Source: Clostridia bacterium (GTDB lineage Bacteria > Bacillota > Clostridia > Oscillospirales > CAG-272). From it: a stretch of DNA of 58,555 nucleotides. Under the pieces are notes generated by a model. That model did not search any database. It was not told the origin of the DNA and worked only from the letters and a program-made list of their open reading frames with translations. The stretch is taken from the NCBI GenBank assembly GCA_017463445.1, contig JAFTPF010000117.1, positions 1 through 58,555 of the forward strand. The letters run 5' to 3'. Position 1 is the first letter of the stretch. Each line of letters starts with the position of its first letter. A program made the position numbers and the translations under genes. Positions 1 through 56,807 of the stretch are shown here, one piece after another.

Positions 1-1236
1 ATCCTGGGCGGTGAGGAAGTAGGAGAGGATCTCGGTACCGTCGATGCCCTGCCACATGAAAACATCGCAAGGAAGGGTGTTGGTCTCGTTCCAGGAGATC
101 TTGGAGGTAACGAAACGGGTAACGCCTGCCTTCTTCAGGATCTGAGGAAGCGCAGCGGAATAGCCGAATACGTCGGGGAGCCACAGGATCTTGGAGTCTA
201 CGCCGAACTCGTTCTTCATAAAGCGCTTGCCGTGGAGAAGCTGACGGCAGAGCGATTCGCCGGAGGGGAGGTTACAGTCGGGCTCTACCCACATTGCGCC
301 TTCGATCTCCCAGTTGCCCGACTCGACCATCTTCTTGACGTCTTCAAACAGCTCGGGCTCCTGCTCCTTGATGAACTTGAACTGCTGGGGCTGGGAGGTG
401 ATGAATTTGTATTCGGGGAACTCCTTCATCATATTGACCGCGGTGGAGAAGGTGCGCTGGCACTTTTCCTCGGTCTGGCGGAAGGGCCAGAGCCATGCGG
501 TGTCGATATGGGAGTGCCCGATGCAGACCACGTTTGCCATCTGCTCGCCGCACTTCTTACCGTAGAACTCGTTACGGATGTAATCCAGCGCCGCGGTAAC
601 GCTGGCGTGGTACGCCTCGGAGCCTCTCTCGCGGAAGTCGATGAGGTTGATGGTCTCGTTCAGCGCGGTGCGGATCTCGCAGTATTCCTTGCCTTCGAAG
701 GGAAGGTAGCGCATCACGTCGTAGGGAACCTTCAGATCGTAGTAGAGCGCACGGGTATCCTTGTCGATGAGCTGAAGCTCAGCCTCCAGATACAGCTCTG
801 TGGGTCTGCCCGAGAAGCCGTATACGGTCAGCTCGAAGGAGTCCACGGTAGAGTCGATGGGGAAGGTCTCGTGGTTGCCGTCCACACCCTGTACGATCTT
901 GCCGTCCATATAGACGATGTACTGAGGATTGGAGTGGCGGGGAGAGCGCACGCAGAGCTCTACATCCTTGCCCTTCATGGATTCGGGAATGGTGACGGTT
1001 GCCTTGAACCAAGCGTGGTACTCGCCGTAAGAGGTCTTGGAGCCGCCTGCGGGGATGGTGTCCTTCATCGCTTCACGGGTGGTCTGGGGAACCCAGCCCT
1101 CGGTGGGAGCGGTGTGGCCCTCGCCCTTGTAATCACAGGGGACGTAAGAGATGTTTTCCACTCTTGCGGTCTCCATGATGATCCGCTGACGGACCCAACC
1201 AAGCACTTGCTCGATTCGTTCCTGTAAATAATTCAT
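1..1236 (-). CDS. GH38 alpha-mannosidase, N-terminal part (gene continues past window start)
   Basis: Absent from the ORF track because it runs off the edge. Hand translation from ATG at 1236-1234 (GGAGG upstream) gives MNYLQERIEQVLGW...VCIGHSHIDTAWLWPFRQTEEK...WVEPDCNLPSGESL, typical GH38 N-domain motifs. Confidence 0.85.
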   Translation of the reverse strand, partial: MNYLQERIEQVLGWVRQRIIMETARVENISYVPCDYKGEGHTAPTEGWVPQTTREAMKDTIPAGGSKTSYGEYHAWFKATVTIPESMKGKDVELCVRSPRHSNPQYIVYMDGKIVQGVDGNHETFPIDSTVDSFELTVYGFSGRPTELYLEAELQLIDKDTRALYYDLKVPYDVMRYLPFEGKEYCEIRTALNETINLIDFRERGSEAYHASVTAALDYIRNEFYGKKCGEQMANVVCIGHSHIDTAWLWPFRQTEEKCQRTFSTAVNMMKEFPEYKFITSQPQQFKFIKEQEPELFEDVKKMVESGNWEIEGAMWVEPDCNLPSGESLCRQLLHGKRFMKNEFGVDSKILWLPDVFGYSAALPQILKKAGVTRFVTSKISWNETNTLPCDVFMWQGIDGTEILSYFLTAQD

Positions 1237-4130: not shown

Positions 4131-4162
4131 GAAAAACTCCCCTTTCCCGGATGGGAAAGGGG
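4131..4162 (-). terminator. Intrinsic terminator of lipoprotein paralogue A
   Basis: CCCCTTTCCC-GGAT-GGGAAAGGGG hairpin with T-run on the minus strand; a near-identical hairpin lies at ~4770-4794 after paralogue B. Confidence 0.6.
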
Positions 4163-4186
4163 AAGATTCACCAGTGCGAGTTCACA

Positions 4187-4747
4187 TTAGCCTTTAACGT
4201 AATCCCATTCATCGGAATCATAGATTCTGGGGTATTCGGCTTTATAGGCTTCCCAAACCGTGCGAAGCTCTTCCTCGGTGAGAACACCTGCGGAATACGC
4301 GCCTTGCAGAGAGTAGGAACGACCGTTTTCGAATACTGTCAGTTTAGTGGTATCGGTGTAGCGGAACTCGTAGCCTTCGACTGTATCCTTAGATAGCATC
4401 GGAGCGACAGTAATAGTACCGTCCTTTCTGCATCCCAGATAGAAGCAGATGTAGGCGTTATCAGATTGAACGTAAAACGATCCGACCATCAAATTGTTGA
4501 TCGTAAGTTCTTCGCCCACCGTATCTTTTACAGCAGCCCAAACGCTGTTCAAAAGGGCAACGCGGTCTGCGCTTGCATCCGGATTGGTGAGCGTATCCCG
4601 GCTAACGGTAGTTACGGTGCCAATGGTAACAGGGGGAGTGGTTGCATTCGTGCCGAGCGTATTGCCTGTGTCGGCGGTGTCGGCACATCCCGCCAACAAC
4701 ATCGCGGCGAGGGCAAGCAGGGTGAGGGTTCGTGCGAGGTGTTTCAT
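4187..4747 (-). CDS. Lipoprotein of unknown function, paralogue A
   Basis: 186 aa; signal peptide with lipobox LLAGC; tandem paralogue of 4836..5363. Confidence 0.6.
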   Translation of the reverse strand: MKHLARTLTLLALAAMLLAGCADTADTGNTLGTNATTPPVTIGTVTTVSRDTLTNPDASADRVALLNSVWAAVKDTVGEELTINNLMVGSFYVQSDNAYICFYLGCRKDGTITVAPMLSKDTVEGYEFRYTDTTKLTVFENGRSYSLQGAYSAGVLTEEELRTVWEAYKAEYPRIYDSDEWDYVKG

Positions 4748-4835
4748 AGTGGTTGTCCTTTCTGTGGTTCCCCTTTCCCGGGTGGAAAAGGGGAGGATTC
4801 ACCAGTGCGAGTTCACATTATCCTGCGACGTCATC

Positions 4836-5363
4836 CTATTCATCGGAATCATATAATCCGGGGTATTCGGCTTTATAGGCTTCCCAAACCGTGCGAAGCT
4901 CTTCCTCGGTGAGAACACCTGCGGAATACGCGCCTTGCAGAGAGTAGGAACGACCGTTTTCGAATACTGTCAGTTTAGTGGTATCGGAATAGTAGAACTC
5001 ATAGCCTTCTACCGTGTCTTGGGTCTCCATTGGGCTGGAAAGGATCAGATTATCCTTTCTGCATCCCCTATAAAAGCAAACGTAGGCGTTGCCACATTGA
5101 ACGTAAAACGATCCGACCGACAAATTGTTAATCGTAAGTTCTTCGTCCACCGTATCTTTTACAGTAGCCCAAACGCTGTTCAGAAGGGCAACGCGTTCCT
5201 CACTCAAATTGGGTTTGGTCAGCGTATCCCGGTCAACGGTAGTAACAGCAGTCGTGGTTGCATTCGTACCGAGCGTGTTGCCCGTATCGGCGGTATCGGC
5301 ACACGAGACCGCGAGCGCTCCGATCACCAATACTAACAGTATGCTGATCATTCGTTTTTTCAT
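4836..5363 (-). CDS. Lipoprotein of unknown function, paralogue B (ends at TAG aligned with Trp of paralogue A)
   Basis: 175 aa; signal peptide/lipobox AVSC; C-terminal half almost identical at nucleotide level to paralogue A. Confidence 0.6.
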   Translation of the reverse strand: MKKRMISILLVLVIGALAVSCADTADTGNTLGTNATTTAVTTVDRDTLTKPNLSEERVALLNSVWATVKDTVDEELTINNLSVGSFYVQCGNAYVCFYRGCRKDNLILSSPMETQDTVEGYEFYYSDTTKLTVFENGRSYSLQGAYSAGVLTEEELRTVWEAYKAEYPGLYDSDE

Positions 5364-15801: not shown

Positions 15802-17322
15802 ATGAAAAAGAGACTTACGGCACTTTTGCTCAGTGTTGCCATGTGTATGGGCTCCGTTCTTCTGTTGGCGTCCTGCGTCGCAACCGAAGAAAATGATTCT
15901 GCTACTACCGACGGCAACATCACCGGCGATCCGTCCGGTGAATATGACGTGACCGATCTGCCTAAGGTGGATATGGAGGGCGCGGTGATCGGCTTCTGCA
16001 TCGCGGAGACCGACGGCGATTACTTCCATCTGCGCTCCATCCGCTCCGATGATGAGGAGAGCGAGGACACCGTTGACGTTGCGGTCAGAACGCGCAACGC
16101 CAAGATCGAGAACTATTTCAATTGCACCATCGAAGTTGTGGACTACATTCCCGGCGGTCTGAACAAGACCATCCAGAGCCAGCTGCTTGCAGGCGTGTCC
16201 GAGTACGACATTCTGGGTGCCCGTCAGTACGATGACGTTCAGCTGGCGCTGCGCGGTATCGTGTATGATCTGAGCAAGCTGGAAGAGGATTACCCTGAGG
16301 CAAAAGGCTATATGAATCTGGACGCTGAATATTGGCCTCAGGCCTACAATGACGGTCTGAAGGTGGGTAACGGTACCTATTGGGTCACCGGCGACCTTTG
16401 TCTGCGCTATTCCGGCGGTTACTACTGCTACTTCGTCAATCATGTTCTGTACAATGAGCTGCTCCAGAAGGATTACGGCAATGTATACGATCTGGTGCGT
16501 GAGGGAAAATGGTCTCTGGATCTGCTTACTACGATGAGCGCTGCCTGCTGGGGTGAGGATACCGACGATAAGACCACCGCAGATGACCGTCTCGGCGTTG
16601 CACAGCCCGTACACGACAACACCAACGGCCTGGCAGTCTCCTCCGGCGTACAGTTCTCTTACCGTCACGAGGACGGTAGCGTTGAGCTGACCTTCCATTC
16701 GGGCAACCCTTTGCTGGTCTCCTTTATGGATAAGTTCTACAATCTGCTGTGTGCACAGGGCGTTTACGATTACGGCTCCGATATGCCCGGCGCTATGAAC
16801 AAATTCGCGGCAGGCGAGGCAGTTTTTGCGGGCGGCCGTCTGAATCAGGCGGAGCTGTATCTGCAGTTTATGGATGACAATTACGGCATTCTCCCCAATC
16901 CCAAGCTGACCGCAGATCAGACCGACTATTATTCCTCCATCCACGACGGTGTGTCTCTGTACGGCATCAACAATGCCAGCCTGCAGATCCCTTACGCGGC
17001 TCTGATCTTGGAGGCAATGGAGATGGAATCCCGTAAAACCGTTCGTCCTACCTACTTCGATTCTGCCGTGAAGATCGTTTACTCCCGCGGCAGTGACGAC
17101 GCAGAGATGATCGACCTGATGGACCGTACCGCTTACTCCGATTTCGTTTACGTCTGGCAGTTCTCCGCGGAGATGAACGGCATGGGCGGATGGCTTCGGA
17201 ATAACATTACTTCCAAAGGCTCTACCGGTCTGAAACGCGTGCAGGGCTCTTGGTCTACGGGCTTGGAAGATATTATGGAAGCTATCGAGAAGCTGGAGAA
17301 TGCTTCCGAGGGCGAAGCTTAA
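15802..17322 (+). CDS. Extracellular solute-binding lipoprotein (ABC-type), paralogue 1
   Basis: MKKRLTALLLSVAMCMGSVLLLASC lipobox; ~500-aa SBP; ATG 15802 has an RBS; track start 15778 is GTG upstream. Confidence 0.8.
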   Translation: MKKRLTALLLSVAMCMGSVLLLASCVATEENDSATTDGNITGDPSGEYDVTDLPKVDMEGAVIGFCIAETDGDYFHLRSIRSDDEESEDTVDVAVRTRNAKIENYFNCTIEVVDYIPGGLNKTIQSQLLAGVSEYDILGARQYDDVQLALRGIVYDLSKLEEDYPEAKGYMNLDAEYWPQAYNDGLKVGNGTYWVTGDLCLRYSGGYYCYFVNHVLYNELLQKDYGNVYDLVREGKWSLDLLTTMSAACWGEDTDDKTTADDRLGVAQPVHDNTNGLAVSSGVQFSYRHEDGSVELTFHSGNPLLVSFMDKFYNLLCAQGVYDYGSDMPGAMNKFAAGEAVFAGGRLNQAELYLQFMDDNYGILPNPKLTADQTDYYSSIHDGVSLYGINNASLQIPYAALILEAMEMESRKTVRPTYFDSAVKIVYSRGSDDAEMIDLMDRTAYSDFVYVWQFSAEMNGMGGWLRNNITSKGSTGLKRVQGSWSTGLEDIMEAIEKLENASEGEA

Positions 17323-17358
17323 TCCAAATAGACTTCCGAATCAATCGCAACAGTTGAC

Positions 17359-17393
17359 AAAACCGACGGATCGCTCCGTCGGTTTTGTTTTTC
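17359..17393 (+). terminator. Intrinsic terminator after SBP1
   Basis: AAAACCGACGGA-TCGC-TCCGTCGGTTTT followed by GTTTTTC. Confidence 0.8.
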
Positions 17394-17458
17394 GATCTCC
17401 GATCTCAACGGGGAAATCTGTGAAAATTGTAAACAATGTAGAAATTTTCAATTGCCTC

Positions 17459-17486
17459 TTGACAAAGCAGAGTTTTATGGTATAAT
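17459..17486 (+). promoter_or_regulatory. Sigma-A promoter of phosphoribosyltransferase gene
   Basis: TTGACA, 16-nt spacer, TGgTATAAT. Confidence 0.6.
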
Positions 17487-17523
17487 GTTGTATAAGAATA
17501 CTCACAAATGCCGAGGAATGTTT

Positions 17524-18081
17524 ATGAAATATTACGAGATGCAGGTGGCAGGACTTACCAGACGGCTCCCCATTTGCCCGCTTAGCGACGATCTTTCCAT
17601 TGCCGGATTCGTGATCTTCGGCGATCAGGAGCTGACCGTTTCCTGCGCCCGCCAGCTGCTTGCGAAGGCGCCCGATTACGATTATCTGATCACAGCCGAG
17701 GCAAAAGGCATTCCGCTTGCTCACGAAATGGCACGGCAGAGAGGGGACCGGCGCTATCTGGTCGCCCGTAAAGCTACCAAATTATATATGACCGACATCG
17801 TCGGCGTGGAGGTGCGTTCTATCACTACCGACAGAGTCCAGCACCTGTACATCGACGGTGAGGACGCGGCTCTGATGAAGGGCAAAAGGATCCTGGTGGT
17901 GGACGACGTGATCTCTACCGGCGAGAGCCTGCGCGCCGTGGAAACGCTGGTAGAATCGGTGGGCGGCATCGTCTGCGGACGTATGGCGATCCTTGCCGAA
18001 GGCTCTGCCGCGGATCGGGACGACATCATCTATCTGGAAAAGCTTCCGTTGTTTACTCCCGACGGAACGCCGCTCTCCTGA
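17524..18081 (+). CDS. Phosphoribosyltransferase family protein (adenine PRT / PurR effector-domain like)
   Basis: PRPP loop ILVVDDVISTGES; ATG 17524 follows GAGGAA; track start 17452 lies upstream of the promoter -10. Confidence 0.75.
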   Translation: MKYYEMQVAGLTRRLPICPLSDDLSIAGFVIFGDQELTVSCARQLLAKAPDYDYLITAEAKGIPLAHEMARQRGDRRYLVARKATKLYMTDIVGVEVRSITTDRVQHLYIDGEDAALMKGKRILVVDDVISTGESLRAVETLVESVGGIVCGRMAILAEGSAADRDDIIYLEKLPLFTPDGTPLS

Positions 18082-18154
18082 CCCGGTATCGGGTCGTCCA
18101 CACCGACTTGGTGCGTATGAACATCGTATCTTATTTTAGAAAGGATAATACATA

Positions 18155-19621
18155 ATGAGAAAGAAACTCACAGCTTTGTTGCTTGCTGCAGCGATGTGTA
18201 CCGGCTCTGCTTTGCTGCTCGCTTCCTGCGCAGAAGGTGAATCCGGTAAGAAGACCACCCAGGATCCCGCTACCACCACTCCCCCCGATCCCAATGCGGA
18301 CATCTCTCTGGATCAGCTCCCTGCCGTTGATATGGAGGGCGCGATGATCGCGTTCGCCATAGCCGAGACCGACGGTGACGGCTTCCACGAGCGTTCCATC
18401 GTTCCTCCCGATCCCGACAGTGAGGATACCGTTGATAAGGCGGTATTCGAGCGTAACGCCAGAATTGAAGCAAAGTACAATTGCACGATCGAGATCGTGA
18501 ACTATCTGGACAATAACCTGAGTTCCTCTATCGGCGACCAGCTGACTGCAGGTACTTCTGATTACGACATTCTGGGCGCACGTCAGTACGACGACGTTCA
18601 GCTGGCATTGGACGGCGTTGTATACGACCTGAATATGCTGACCACCGACTTCCCCGAAGCCGCAGGCTATCTGAATCTGGATGCCTCCTACTGGGCAAAG
18701 GGCTATAACGATGCGCTGCAGATCGGTCAAGGCCGTTACTGGGTCACCGGTGACCTCTGTCTGCGTTACTCCGGCGGTTACTACTGCTACTTCGTTAACC
18801 ACACCAAGTACAACGAGTATCTGAACGAAACGCACGGCAACATTTATGATGTCGTCCGTAAAGGCGAATGGACTCTCGATAAACTGACCGAGATGACCGA
18901 AGGTATCTGGGAAGACAGAGGCACGTTGGATGATAAGACTAGTACCGACGATATGCTGGCCATCGCTCAGCCCGTATGGGATAACACCAACGGTTTGTCT
19001 ATTTCCTCCGGCGTGCAGTACAGCTACCGTCATGAGGACGGCACCATTCAGCTGACTATGGTCAGAGGTAACAAGCAGCTGGAGAGCTTTATGACTAAGT
19101 TCTACAATCTGCTCCAGAAGGACGGCGTATACAATTACGGCGGCGAATACGACGACGCAATGAAGAAGCTGGTTGCCAACGAGGCAGTCTTTGCTTCCGG
19201 CCGTCTGAACCAGGCTGAGCTGTACCTGCAGGAGATGGAAGATAACTACGGCATCATTCCCAATCCTAAGCTCTCTACCGATCAGACCAACTACGTTTCC
19301 TCTATCCACGACGGCGTACAGCTGTACGGCATCAATAACAACTCCCTGCAGATCCCCGAGGCGGCTCTGATCCTGGACGCACTGGAGCTGGAGTCCCGTA
19401 AGTCTGTCCGTCCCATGTACTTCGATTCTGCTGTTAAGATCGTGTACTCCCGTGGTAGTGACGACGCGGAAATGATCGACCTGATGGATGCCAGCATCTA
19501 CTCTGACTTCGTATACGTATGGCAGTTCTCTGCTGAGATGAAGGACATGGGTATGTGGCTGAGAGGCTCAGTGAAGTCTGCAAACGGCTACAACAACCTT
19601 GCTCGTGTACAGGGAACATGA
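18155..19621 (+). CDS. Extracellular solute-binding lipoprotein, paralogue 2 (ends at TGA aligned with Trp of paralogue 1)
   Basis: MRKKLTALLLAAAMCTGSALLLASC lipobox; collinear with 15802..17322 along its full length. Confidence 0.85.
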   Translation: MRKKLTALLLAAAMCTGSALLLASCAEGESGKKTTQDPATTTPPDPNADISLDQLPAVDMEGAMIAFAIAETDGDGFHERSIVPPDPDSEDTVDKAVFERNARIEAKYNCTIEIVNYLDNNLSSSIGDQLTAGTSDYDILGARQYDDVQLALDGVVYDLNMLTTDFPEAAGYLNLDASYWAKGYNDALQIGQGRYWVTGDLCLRYSGGYYCYFVNHTKYNEYLNETHGNIYDVVRKGEWTLDKLTEMTEGIWEDRGTLDDKTSTDDMLAIAQPVWDNTNGLSISSGVQYSYRHEDGTIQLTMVRGNKQLESFMTKFYNLLQKDGVYNYGGEYDDAMKKLVANEAVFASGRLNQAELYLQEMEDNYGIIPNPKLSTDQTNYVSSIHDGVQLYGINNNSLQIPEAALILDALELESRKSVRPMYFDSAVKIVYSRGSDDAEMIDLMDASIYSDFVYVWQFSAEMKDMGMWLRGSVKSANGYNNLARVQGT

Positions 19622-19833: not shown

Positions 19834-19907
<74 letters not shown>

Positions 19908-19934
19908 ATTTTTTCAGCCTCGGCTGAAAAATCC

Positions 19935-20011
19935 GCTTCCGTAGCTCAGCTGGATAGAGCAACTGCCTTCTAAGCAGTAGGTCGGGGGTTCGAGTCCCTC
20001 CGGGGGCGCCA
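19935..20011 (+). tRNA. tRNA-Arg (anticodon TCT)
   Basis: TAGCTCAGCTGGATAGAGC D-arm; anticodon loop CTTCTAA; acceptor with two G-U pairs; encoded CCA. Confidence 0.85.
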
Positions 20012-20016
20012 ATTCA

Positions 20017-20126
<110 letters not shown>

Positions 20127-22484: not shown

Positions 22485-22565
22485 AAGGGGAACTTCTTGA
22501 AAGAAGTTCCCCTTAGGATCCCCTCAAGAACTTCCGAAAAAGCCCGACAAGTAATTGTCGGGCTT
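22485..22565 (+). repeat. Tripartite 3' element immediately after the PTS EIICB stop
   Basis: AAGGGGAACTTCTTGAAAGAAGTTCCCCTT + CCCCTCAAGAACTTCCGAAAAAG + AGCCCGACAAGTAATTGTCGGGCT. Confidence 0.7.
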
Positions 22566-32928: not shown

Positions 32929-33137
32929 AAAGGAAAATGTGCTATAGTAATCACATTTTGCGGACACGCAAAGTATCACAAAACAGAGGAATATGAGCGA
33001 AGGATACTTGCATTTTAGAAGAAAAGGTGGGAAACCAACCCACCTAATTCATTTTACAATCAGTATTTGATAATTATTTTGAAAATTTTGAATTTCATGC
33101 AACAAAACCGCGATTTGAAGGAATTATATGTAACAGC

Positions 33138-33274
33138 GTGTCGAAAAAATCCTTATCAAAATCGAAGGGAGGGCGAAACCATCTCAAACGCCGAAGTTTT
33201 CGCCCTCCCTTCGAGCATCCCACCCACTTCCTTGGCTGGCGGCATTCTATAATTGTACTTTATCGACAAACTGA
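33138..33274 (+). repeat. Family B structured repeat, copy 1 (137 bp)
   Basis: 16-bp perfect stem CGAAGGGAGGGCGAAA/TTTCGCCCTCCCTTCG around loop CCATCTCAAACGCCGAAGT; tail ...TTCCTTGGCTGGCG...TTTATCGACAAACTGA. Confidence 0.8.
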
Positions 33275-33379
33275 TGTAAGAAGGATTTATTGCACAGTAG
33301 ATTGATCAATCGAACGGAGCCGTACATTTTTATTGTGTGCGGCTTTGGATAGATATTTTTTATAATAAGGAGAAGGACT

Positions 33380-35095: not shown

Positions 35096-35149
35096 CCGCA
35101 TAAGCGGCACTGCCGCGCAACCTCCCTTTCTTTTGAAAGGGAGGACAGA

Positions 35150-35286
35150 GTGTCGAAAAAGTGTCAATGATAACTGGAGGAAGGGGAAAACCATCTCAAA
35201 CGCCGAAGTTTTTCCCCTTCCTCCAGACCTCCTACCCCATTCCTTGGCTGGCGACTTTCTAAATTTATAGTTTATCGACAGACTGA
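35150..35286 (+). repeat. Family B structured repeat, copy 2 (137 bp)
   Basis: 17-bp perfect stem CTGGAGGAAGGGGAAAA/TTTTCCCCTTCCTCCAG around the identical 19-nt loop; same tail motifs and same length as copy 1. Confidence 0.8.
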
Positions 35287-35318
35287 CCTCCCTTTTCTCA
35301 CGAAAAGGGAGGATTTTT
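35287..35318 (+). terminator. Intrinsic terminator directly after family B copy 2
   Basis: CCTCCCTTTT-CTCACG-AAAAGGGAGG followed by ATTTTT. Confidence 0.7.
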
Positions 35319-37555: not shown

Positions 37556-37700
37556 CCAGCCAAGGAAGATGAGAGGGGAATAGTTGCGCTATGCGCAACT
37601 ATGGGGAGAGAAGGAAACTTCGGCGTTTGAGGATGGTCTGCAGTTGCGCATAGCGCAACTGCCGGAGTTCGGCACAGCCGAACTCCATTTTCTCCCCTTC
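37556..37700 (-). repeat. Family B repeat, degenerate inverted copy 4 carrying embedded palindromes
   Basis: CCAGCCAAGG (37556-37565) and ACTTCGGCGTTTGAGGATGG (37617-37636) match the reverse complement of tail and loop. Stem arms are no longer complementary. 21-bp palindromes at 37581-37601 and 37641-37661. Confidence 0.6.
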
Positions 37701-37828
37701 TCAGATTACAATTTGGCAAAGCCGAATTGCTTCCTTATATTCCTAACGATTATTCCAAGTCACTATCTCGGCGGACGATGATTATCATTGGGGAGCAGGA
37801 GTGAAGTTCGGTGCGAGGCGTTCGTTTC

Positions 37829-42798: not shown

Positions 42799-43057
42799 GT
42801 CGCTTTTTGAAAAAAGCGACGCAAAAACTTCTATATAAGCCCCGCAAATACTTGCGGGGCAAACTCAACTCGTCATTCAAGACACATTAGAGGTCTGCAA
42901 GTATTTGCCGACCTTTTCAAAAGTTCTTGAGGGAGTTTGAGGGAACTTCTTTCAAGAAGTTTCCTCAAGAAAAAACATGCGGCGCAAGCATTTGCGACGC
43001 TTTTTCGGAAGTTTTTGAGGGGTTTTAGGGGAACTTTATTCAAAAAGTTCCCCTAAG
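42799..43057. repeat. Cluster of four tripartite elements filling the pepD/dpaB convergent spacer
   Basis: Units at 42799-42860 (+), 42892-42969 (-), 42979-43057 (-), each hairpin A + CTCAA(G/A)AACTT tail + hairpin E (..GCAA(A/G)TA(C/T)TTGC..). Confidence 0.7.
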
Positions 43058-56734: not shown

Positions 56735-56807
56735 TCTGAGGCGGGAAGAACCATCTCAAACGCCGAAGTTTCTTCCCGCCTCAGACTCCACCCAACTCCT
56801 TGGCTGG
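56735..56807 (+). repeat. Family B structured repeat, copy 3
   Basis: 16-bp perfect stem TCTGAGGCGGGAAGAA/TTCTTCCCGCCTCAGA around the identical 19-nt loop; tail CTCCACCCAACTCCTTGGCTGG. Confidence 0.8.

Follow-up and report, generated by a model that had tools for sequence, protein, structure and literature searches.

A mobile repeat of gut Clostridia in which both hairpin arms and a mirrored tail co-vary: a candidate intrastrand triple helix

An earlier note on the contig JAFTPF010000117.1 of a Clostridia bacterium (GTDB lineage Oscillospirales, CAG-272; assembly GCA_017463445.1), all 58,555 nucleotides of which make up the window analysed here, had drawn attention to hairpin repeats with an identical 19-nt loop and stems that differ from copy to copy. 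We found that these repeats are the cores of a multicopy, mobile, non-coding element of gut Clostridia/Oscillospiraceae and that they hold features beyond those described in the note: a third segment related to both arms of the hairpin, a putative pseudoknot between loop and tail and, in copies 1 and 2, a carrier with the anatomy of a 140-bp MITE (miniature inverted-repeat transposable element), with terminal inverted repeats (TIRs) and target-site duplications (TSDs). On the plus strand, the order of the core is purine arm (R), 19-nt loop, pyrimidine arm (Y), tight turn, a segment mirroring Y, and CCTTGGCT. The aligned copies show R, Y and the mirror segment varying in concert between copies, and we propose that the mirror segment would be the third strand of an intrastrand triple helix.

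Covariation of stem, tail and loop

The loop CCATCTCAAACGCCGAAGT occurs exactly three times on the plus strand of the window, at 33179, 35191 and 56751, and with three mismatches at 37617-37635 on the minus strand, i.e. four matches against 0.02 expected by chance, and TCCTTGGCTGG stands downstream of every copy (33229, 35241 and 56797, plus strand; 37556, minus strand). Three intact copies and a decayed one have this loop and the CCTTGGCT tail in common, while the intact stems, of 16-17 bp, are unrelated in sequence and, as the note had claimed, perfectly paired (17, 17 and 16 bp in copies 1, 2 and 3). Copy 1 has a folding energy of -40.4 kcal/mol (z=-5.7), and a covariance model run on the window matched the three intact copies and fragments of the decayed one, and nothing else. 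The parts of the four copies are as follows.

33134-33273 (+): copy 1, complete 140-bp MITE; inverted ends 33134-33148 CAGCGTGTCGAAAAA and 33259-33273 TTTATCGACAAACTG
33128-33133 and 33274-33279 (+): copy 1, flanking direct repeat ATGTAA, 6 bp
33162-33178 (+): copy 1, purine-rich 5' arm TCGAAGGGAGGGCGAAA, forming the stem with 33198-33214
33179-33197 (+): copy 1, conserved 19-nt loop; 33190-33194 (GCCGA) is the 5' half of the proposed pseudoknot
33198-33214 (+): copy 1, pyrimidine-rich 3' arm TTTCGCCCTCCCTTCGA
33215-33230 (+): copy 1, proposed third-strand segment GCATCCCACCCACTTC, mirror of the 3' arm and parallel complement of the 5' arm
33230-33236 (+): copy 1, 3' half of the proposed pseudoknot, CCTTGGC, pairing with loop positions 33190-33196
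35146-35285 (+): copy 2, complete 140-bp MITE; inverted ends 35146-35160 and 35271-35285
35121-35144 and 35287-35312: flanks of copy 2, two similar terminator-like hairpins, with a T-run after the second
35174-35248 (+): copy 2, core; 5' arm 35174-35190, loop 35191-35209, 3' arm 35210-35226, proposed third strand 35227-35242 ACCTCCTACCCCATTC, pseudoknot 3' half 35242-35248
56735-56804 (+): copy 3, core, with no recognisable inverted ends; 5' arm 56735-56750, loop 56751-56769, 3' arm 56770-56785, proposed third strand 56786-56798 CTCCACCCAACTC, pseudoknot 3' half 56798-56804
37556-37706 (approximate; -): copy 4, decayed; tail and 3' arm still mirror each other

To examine the pairing of the stem, we aligned 90 unique copies from public genomes without gaps. 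Both sides change in 14 of the 15 pairs and 93.7% of the cells are paired; the covariation score was 0.50 as compared to 0.18 in shuffled alignments, none of 500 of which reached the observed value, and to 0.23 at most with a slid partner. The 5' arm has a purine content of 88%, and plus-strand G.U pairs are nearly absent. The compensated stem that the note had claimed from three copies therefore holds well beyond the window, and the significance of the larger set argues against the alternative considered there, that of recent palindromes only. These data support the view that the stems are kept by selection on pairing and not on sequence.

The downstream tail had been described in the earlier note as a shared conserved end. 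Its conserved part is indeed present, and TTGGC within it can pair with the loop, whereas the variable part co-varies with the stem. This pyrimidine-rich part, which extends from the 3' arm to CCTTGGCT, is a mirror image of the 3' arm, so that it complements the purine-rich 5' arm in parallel orientation; copy 3, in which GAGGCGGGAAGAA stands opposite CTCCACCCAACTC, is an example. In about 85-90 unique copies from about 46 metagenome-assembled genomes (MAGs), the parallel match between 5' arm and tail was 66.6% at offset 0 versus 35-49% at other offsets. All the antiparallel registers were weak (0.44 or less, as compared to 0.62 for the parallel offset 0), which rules out a Watson-Crick pairing of the tail with the 5' arm, and the arms re-paired with the tails of other copies gave 0.462 ± 0.013, with a maximum of 0.505 in 2000 permutations. 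For a formal pair count the tail was reversed, so that the pair-counting tool could be applied: 72.0% of the cells were complementary versus 57.1 ± 0.7 when shuffled (0/500) and 59.9% at most when slid, the covariation score was 0.380 versus 0.193, and both sides changed at 14 of 15 positions. When shared ancestry was removed by means of 38 disjoint nearest-neighbour pairs, the tail base had changed in 39 of the 54 cases in which the stem pair had changed and been compensated, and in 67 of the 344 in which it had not changed; in these independent contrasts the odds ratio of tail to stem change was 10.7 (p=3.5e-14). Insertions of 20-53 nt at the turn, several of which fold into hairpins on their own, do not abolish the relation. 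Over about 46 genomes we counted more than 70 different combinations of stem and tail, and nearest relatives differ by three-way compensated changes. Among known structures, a segment that complements the purine strand of a helix in parallel register speaks for a triple helix, and on account of this parallel-register covariation with the stem we take the tail to be a third strand.

In terms of the triplex classes of Holder et al. (2015), the plus strand reads as class III (R-Y-H) and the minus strand as class I (RH-R-Y). The turn measures 0-3 nt in basic copies and carries insertions of 12-53 nt elsewhere. The loop between R and Y, conserved at 19 nt, is longer than the connecting loops allowed in ITxF (1-6 nt) and PIT (0-10 nt) searches, by which the element would therefore have been missed.

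The loop segment GCCGAAG faces CCTTGGC of the tail in the pairs G-C, C-G, C-G, G.U and A-U, an A/C mismatch, and G-C. Among the loop variants sought in the fetched loci and in metagenomes, all the complete true elements with C13 changed to G carry the compensating change of TTGGC to TTGCC (L061, L113, L117/L143 and L134), so that the C13-G7' pair becomes G-C; their stems differ, they include long and short forms, and they have A or G at loop position 9. The tail change was found in none of about 88 canonical copies. In addition, A17 to G (L047 and L060) and C to T in the tail (L070) each mend the single mismatch. A helix between the loop and a segment outside the hairpin, with compensation, is what defines an H-type pseudoknot, and we regard the pairing of GCCGA with TTGGC as probably real, though the support is thin because a double change was seen at only one position. 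A sigma-54/sigma-70 site was also considered for TTGGCT and discarded: the motif is kept without a following -10 and co-varies with the loop, so that pairing is the better explanation. As a separate observation, the right part of one carrier (window 35244-35271; also L022 and L026) has TTGGCT, 16 nt and TATAGT/CATAGT, which resembles a sigma-70-like promoter directed out of the element, and in copy 2 a terminator follows immediately.

The folding strand and the alternatives

It has been reported that an element of this kind always reads as class III on one strand and as class I on the other, that purine-motif triplexes do not form in RNA, and that pyrimidine-type intrastrand triplexes can (PMC4666352). 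A purine-motif reading of the minus strand therefore implies a DNA fold. Across 993 core triplets, the fit to the purine motif was 84.6% (86.8% with T.CG), as compared to 72.9% for the pyrimidine motif. G-C pairs are faced by C in 85%, A-T pairs by T in 59% and by A in 35%, and C-G inversions by A in 69%, which on the minus strand would read as G.GC, A.AT, T.AT and T.CG. The A residues of the tail, corresponding to T in a minus-strand third strand, stand opposite A-T in 116 cases and opposite C-G inversions in 22, and opposite G-C in 10 of 616. T.CG is reportedly the preferred antiparallel solution for such inversions. The inversion triples of the parallel motif, T.CG and G.TA (PMC2532714), are not used by the element. 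Internal single mismatches in the stem are A/C rather than G/T on the plus strand by 7:1 (9:2 in the core set), and these A/C mismatches are G.T on the minus strand. The tail continues to match the 3' arm (A, C, C) at 7 of the 16 mismatched positions, which would be expected with the complement of the 3' arm as central strand. L040, L108 and L110, three short-form loci that look orthologous, keep the 3' arm and differ by one base in the tail, while the 5' arm drifts between G and A.

The minus-strand order (GCCAAGG, third strand, R, ACU, CUUCGGC, GUUUGAGAUGG, Y) would match a classical H-type pseudoknot, its loop 1 running through the major groove of stem 2, an assignment in which we have moderate confidence. 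From these counts, we lean slightly towards the G-rich minus strand of the window as the folding strand, with a purine-motif DNA triplex. The earlier note had left a functional RNA and a DNA hairpin as alternatives; our reading gives some preference to a DNA fold, and to the strand complementary to that described there.

In the fold that we propose, a single strand would form a hairpin of 12-17 bp with the third strand along its purine arm as an intrastrand triple helix, and the end of the third strand would be clamped to the hairpin loop by a pseudoknot helix of 5-7 bp. The fold would form when DNA is unwound in replication, transcription or transposition. It might be needed in cis for the propagation of the element itself or act as a very stable barrier to polymerases or helicases, and a structure-specific step on unwound DNA, perhaps related to the preference for hairpin targets, can be envisaged. 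Since the fold is kept in every amplified lineage while carriers and orientations vary, we think that it may be needed in cis for spread, but our confidence in either role, propagation in cis or barrier, is low. Regulation of particular host genes is unlikely. We advance only tentatively, as something short of probable, the joint claim that the G-rich strand folds in vivo as single-stranded DNA into a purine-motif helix of 12-17 triplets plus pseudoknot, kept by three-way compensation, and that selection acts because propagation, or an effect on replication or transcription, depends on this fold.

Several points weigh against this proposal. The triplex is deduced from the parallel-register covariation and from nothing else, and about 13-15% of the triplets fit neither motif. 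The counts that discriminate between strands are modest (7:1 for the mismatches; 9 versus 3-4 for the tail following the arm). The clamp is better on the plus strand, with five contiguous pairs that include an invariant G.U, than on the minus strand, where it consists of 3+3 pairs around a C/A mismatch, which pulls towards a plus-strand RNA fold. A DNA fold needs transient single-strandedness, yet no clear orientation bias was found with respect to GC skew (60:42), flanking open reading frames (ORFs) or terminator-like sites. The invariance of the loop is in part a matter of ascertainment, since the loci were fetched with the exact 19-mer. Lastly, a MITE of the DDE type would have no obvious need of an internal fold for its transposition, and no autonomous partner was found in the loci scanned or by ORF clustering of 111 loci.

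The main alternative is a fold of the plus-strand RNA, in which R, loop, Y, turn and Y' would build a pyrimidine-motif (C+.GC, U.AU) triple helix with a pseudoknot from the loop to the 3' tail. It would act in read-through transcripts, e.g. as an unusually stable exonuclease block or a stabiliser of the 3' untranslated region, in principle like the triple helices of ENE/MALAT1 or like exonuclease-resistant pseudoknots. The covariation data described above are compatible with such a fold too, as class III always accompanies class I on the other strand and pyrimidine-type intrastrand triplexes can form in RNA (PMC4666352); the 72.9% of triplets canonical for the pyrimidine motif and the five contiguous clamp pairs speak for it too, and both copy 2 and L022 sit between the stop codon of a gene and a terminator T-run, so that the plus strand should be transcribed there. 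Against it, A faces 35% of the A-T pairs, and 69% of the C-G inversions face A and not the T of the parallel motif (PMC2532714). Moreover, the G-rich stems would require runs of protonated C at neutral pH, G.U is nearly absent from the stem, where A/C mismatches are the commonest defect, and the copies show no orientation preference relative to terminators or flanking genes. All considered, we judge a plus-strand RNA fold to be possible but rather unlikely.

We give little credence to the remaining explanations. The 3' arm and the tail make up a homopurine.homopyrimidine mirror repeat, the classical motif of H-DNA, which could form in the duplex under supercoiling; many copies also have four G3 tracts on the minus strand, as required for a G-quadruplex (or i-motif), whose competition with the triplex has been considered for TM_ECO as well (PMC4666352). 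However, the 5' arm and the loop-tail pairing, both of which co-vary, are dispensable for H-DNA, and H-DNA would be disfavoured by insertions of 20-53 nt at the mirror centre, yet these are tolerated. The correspondence extends base by base to the A positions, and many stems lack four G3 tracts (e.g. GAGGAGAGGGAGAAA); such duplex or G/C-tract structures are very improbable. We find it a shade harder still to believe that there is only a hairpin with conserved loop and flank, recognised by a transposase or recombinase, and that the likeness of the tail is a by-product of purine/pyrimidine composition. Hairpin and loop are real and conserved and the elements are mobile, but the controls that preserve composition (permuted partners, slid register, antiparallel pairing) never reach the observed parallel match, the independent contrasts (p=3.5e-14) are hard to reconcile with a by-product, and no recombinase or transposase recurs near the copies. 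Least credible of all is the absence of structural selection, with complementarity arising from recent palindromic duplication or recent transposition. Some stems do recur (that of window copy 1 in L079 and that of window copy 2 in L075), so that the pattern is partly inherited. Nevertheless, we know of no copying mechanism that makes a mirror repeat, that is, a reverse without complement, and neither the more than 70 stem/tail combinations in about 46 genomes, with their three-way compensated differences between nearest relatives, nor the loop-tail compensation would be expected.

Mobility, distribution and surroundings of the element

Copies 1 and 2 are units of 140 bp with 15-bp inverted ends CAGnnTGTCGAAAAA. 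A related carrier has the ends CAGACTGAAGACAAA in units again of exactly 140 bp, and a third, with ends GTGCGGCACTTG, was found in CP091718, a complete chromosome; in the short forms no ends could be recognised. Conservation is far stronger in the core than in its carriers. With less than 200 bp, no coding sequence and TIRs, the 140-bp units have the anatomy of MITEs, and they are also flanked by TSDs, the length of which is unusually variable. Some are short (ATGTAA in window copy 1 and TTTACCT in L044), and others comprise a whole hairpin of 20 bp (L048), 22 bp (L058) or about 24-27 bp (L022, L050 and L088), the repeats being exact in L048 and L058; copy 2 is flanked by a diverged pair of hairpins (35121-35144 and 35287-35312). 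These flanking direct repeats prove insertion. The 140-bp MITEs insert at terminator hairpins, often duplicating the entire hairpin, which suggests that integration takes place across the base of an extruded or folded hairpin that sets the length of the duplication. Within the scanned loci, the end motifs either lay next to cores or were weak, isolated matches, and in no case did they flank an ORF of transposase size.

A scan for the exact loop, with one genome per species, yielded at least 111 loci and at least 122 copies in about 46 assemblies, all of them MAGs among the matches listed. The host labels among these matches were Clostridia, Eubacteriales, Oscillospiraceae, Ruminococcus, Lachnospiraceae and Flemingiibacterium, and the gut sources horse, roe deer, sheep, goat, buffalo and human. 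Several genomes have at least 7-13 copies. Many copies lie at contig ends, where a repeat that breaks assemblies would be expected. In agreement with the note, which could assign no known family, Rfam gave no match: at the gathering threshold only tRNAs scored in the window, a permissive scan of 33100-33300 gave generic miRNA-hairpin models at best (12-22 bits versus cut-offs of 53-97 bits), and 12 related loci had no match. Our literature searches returned no paper with the exact loop sequence and, for triple helices in MITEs or bacteria, BoxC/TM_ECO as the sole relative. Viral contigs gave one chance match to a loop variant and no element, plasmids and phages gave no match to the 140-bp unit, and a strain comparison by way of a leucine-rich-repeat (LRR) protein of the window returned only an essentially identical contig, while for the glutaminase ORF, taken from its listed TTG start, there was no database record.

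Proteins linked to the element were sought by all-against-all clustering of 1017 ORFs from the 111 loci listed, and none recurred near the copies, the largest ORF cluster comprising only 5 loci. The association with a Y1/RAYT-type transposase or other recombinase suggested in the earlier note is not borne out: besides the lack of a recurrent protein near these loci, the hallmarks of REP are absent and the anatomy is one of TIRs and TSDs. Nor did orientation clearly depend on position along the CP091718 chromosome, and from the absence of both a recurrent protein and an orientation bias we conclude that the element is not a cis-regulator of a gene class. Three further candidates were rejected, the first two on inspection of the copies. 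A small minus-strand ORF is not conserved in frame or length between copies; an intrinsic terminator is not supported by any consistent T-run after the stem on either strand; and insertion of the loop into pre-existing terminator hairpins of the host does not agree with the fixed purine/pyrimidine polarity, the recurrent stems and the mirroring tail.

Short forms (L110, L108, L040, L015, L025, L034, L029, L072, L052, L092, L097, L104 and L134) have a stem of 5-7 bp, a mini-hairpin at the turn and a tail ending in CACCTCCTTGGCT. The sequence CACCTCCTT is what we take to be the 3' end of 16S rRNA, the complement of which is presumably a perfect Shine-Dalgarno sequence. Downstream of most short forms there is a conserved hairpin, CTTTTGTTGCC-loop-GGCAACAAAAG. 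In L014 (about 330-700, reverse strand) and L086, such units are arrayed in tandem at a spacing of about 110-140 nt, with the variant loops CCATCTCAAGCGCTGAAGT and CCATCTCAAGCGCCGAAGT and variant tails CCATTGGCT. On the complete chromosome CP091718.1, the loci L005, L042, L063, L068, L101, L105 and L106 lie at 600-968 kb, the copies being interspersed in mosaics with a different hairpin repeat, GGGGATGCAAGGGGCGAAGCCCCTTGCAT; of the 10 cores found there, 9 share one strand.

In the window, copy 4 is degenerate and inverted, as the note had it: its loop has a 1-nt insertion, the pairing of the 5' arm is lost, and a palindrome unrelated to the element, AGTTGCGC(W3)GCGCAACT, is inserted at the turn (37582-37600) and at the junction of loop and 5' arm (37642-37660), with a further interruption by another hairpin. 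The same 19-nt palindrome is present in L008 (7611-7629), precisely at the turn between 3' arm and third strand, and in L098 (3688-3706 and 4649-4667), where it also occurs away from any core, and different palindromes occupy the turn in L075, L031 and L111. In its GC content of about 55% and its genes for GH2, BspA-type LRR and glutaminase A proteins, the window resembles the genomes in which the family was found; it also includes a cluster of three tRNA genes (19834-20123). It has other short repeats, namely dispersed palindromes of the type GGGAACTTCTTGAAAGAAGTTCCC and a GCAAGTATTTGC...TTTGAAAA motif, at 1276-1299, 22488-22511, 42941-42964 and 43029-43052 (first set) and at 1352-1385, 33059-33092, 42897-42930 and 42984-43017 (second set), one of which stands about 40 nt upstream of MITE copy 1. 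There are also a tandem duplication of about 2.36 kb (72-76% identity) and a 631-bp tandem repeat (85-92% identity) (15958-19423 and 4138-5303).

Comparison with known systems

The 140-bp units share with prokaryotic MITEs such as Correia, RUP, BOX/SPRITE and Nezha (PMC10969869) their size, non-coding nature, 15-bp TIRs, flanking target repeats, multicopy state, intergenic location and the breaking of assemblies. They are unlike those MITEs in that the core is much better conserved than the ends, being common to at least three carriers with different ends and to copies without recognisable ends, and in that the duplications may be as short as 6-7 bp or comprise an entire terminator hairpin of 20-27 bp; the words 'triplex', 'triple' and 'pseudoknot' are absent from the MITE review (PMC10969869). 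REP/BIME with RAYT and integron attC sites resemble the element as hairpins conserved in structure and variable in sequence and act, as the element would, as single-stranded DNA, but REP and attC have no third strand or pseudoknot. The copies lack a GTAG/CTAC-type signature and no RAYT was found near the 111 loci listed; there is likewise no GTTRRRY core in the copies, and neither cassette arrays nor an integrase near them.

Among RNAs, triple-bearing pseudoknots have two interleaved helices with a connecting strand that runs along a helix and makes base triples, and the minus-strand third strand of the element would have their classical topology, that of loop 1 over stem 2. They differ in having 3-6 mostly U.A-U triples, fixed sequences and specific gene contexts, whereas the element would have up to 17 mostly G-type triplets, is hypervariable and mobile, has no gene context and is probably DNA. 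The accessible part of a review of RNA triple helices describes nothing resembling it. ENE/MALAT1-type structures, including those of plant and fungal transposon RNAs, provide another case of a long triple helix tied to transposable elements, and their proposed protective role is a possible function for a plus-strand RNA fold. However, ENEs are eukaryotic or viral, clamp an A-rich 3' tail between U-rich strands (U.A-U), and have neither the R-loop-Y-Y fold nor a pseudoknot to the hairpin loop.

In vitro, intrastrand and H-DNA triplexes have a history of decades, and whether cells use or select them is an old question. The closest known kind are the intrastrand-triplex repeats BoxC/PIT/TM_ECO, which occur in E. 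coli and in other Proteobacteria (Hoyne et al. 2000, cited by Holder et al. 2015, PMC4666352). Single DNA strands of BoxC/TM_ECO form triplexes in vitro with a Tm of 70-82 °C, and TM_ECO is a fixed class II purine motif of 9 triplets with no function described there beyond an association with rearrangements (PMC4666352). Since the sequences of BoxC/PIT/TM_ECO are fixed, they allow no comparative test. In the family described here, dozens of triplet sequences keep their Watson-Crick and Hoogsteen-type partners in step, together with a compensated clamp, and this would be rare evolutionary evidence of selection on a long triple helix; if the proposal is correct, comparative sequence analysis would for the first time, in any organism, back a triple helix of this length in the way it backs RNA helices, and the family would be a natural system in which to ask what triplex DNA does in cells. 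The family is also a ready mutational series for biophysics, on both strands and as DNA and RNA, and offers a tractable link between triplex structure, MITE mobility and the targeting of terminator hairpins in abundant uncultured gut Clostridia, with the practical consequence that its copies break MAG assemblies.

Like BoxC/TM_ECO, the element is a dispersed, intergenic, multicopy and G/C-rich repeat with three consecutive blocks on one strand (pyrimidine, purine and a second purine or Hoogsteen block) suited to an intrastrand triplex. In both, the G-rich strand carries a purine motif, to which a pyrimidine-motif counterpart automatically corresponds on the other strand, and neither shows an association with orientation or gene function. 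It does not follow the BoxC/TM_ECO consensus CCCTCNCCC-N3-6-GGGNGAGGG-N3-GGGNGAGGG, from which it differs in block order, length and sequence. Whereas TM_ECO is class II (Y-R-RH), with 9 triplets, loops of 3-6 nt and a fixed sequence, the element of Clostridia is class I/III, with 12-17 triplets (5-7 in short forms) and a conserved 19-nt loop that would pair with the flank of the third strand. Its triplets vary from copy to copy with three-way compensation and, unlike TM_ECO, it is carried in a MITE with TSDs and has Clostridia as hosts.

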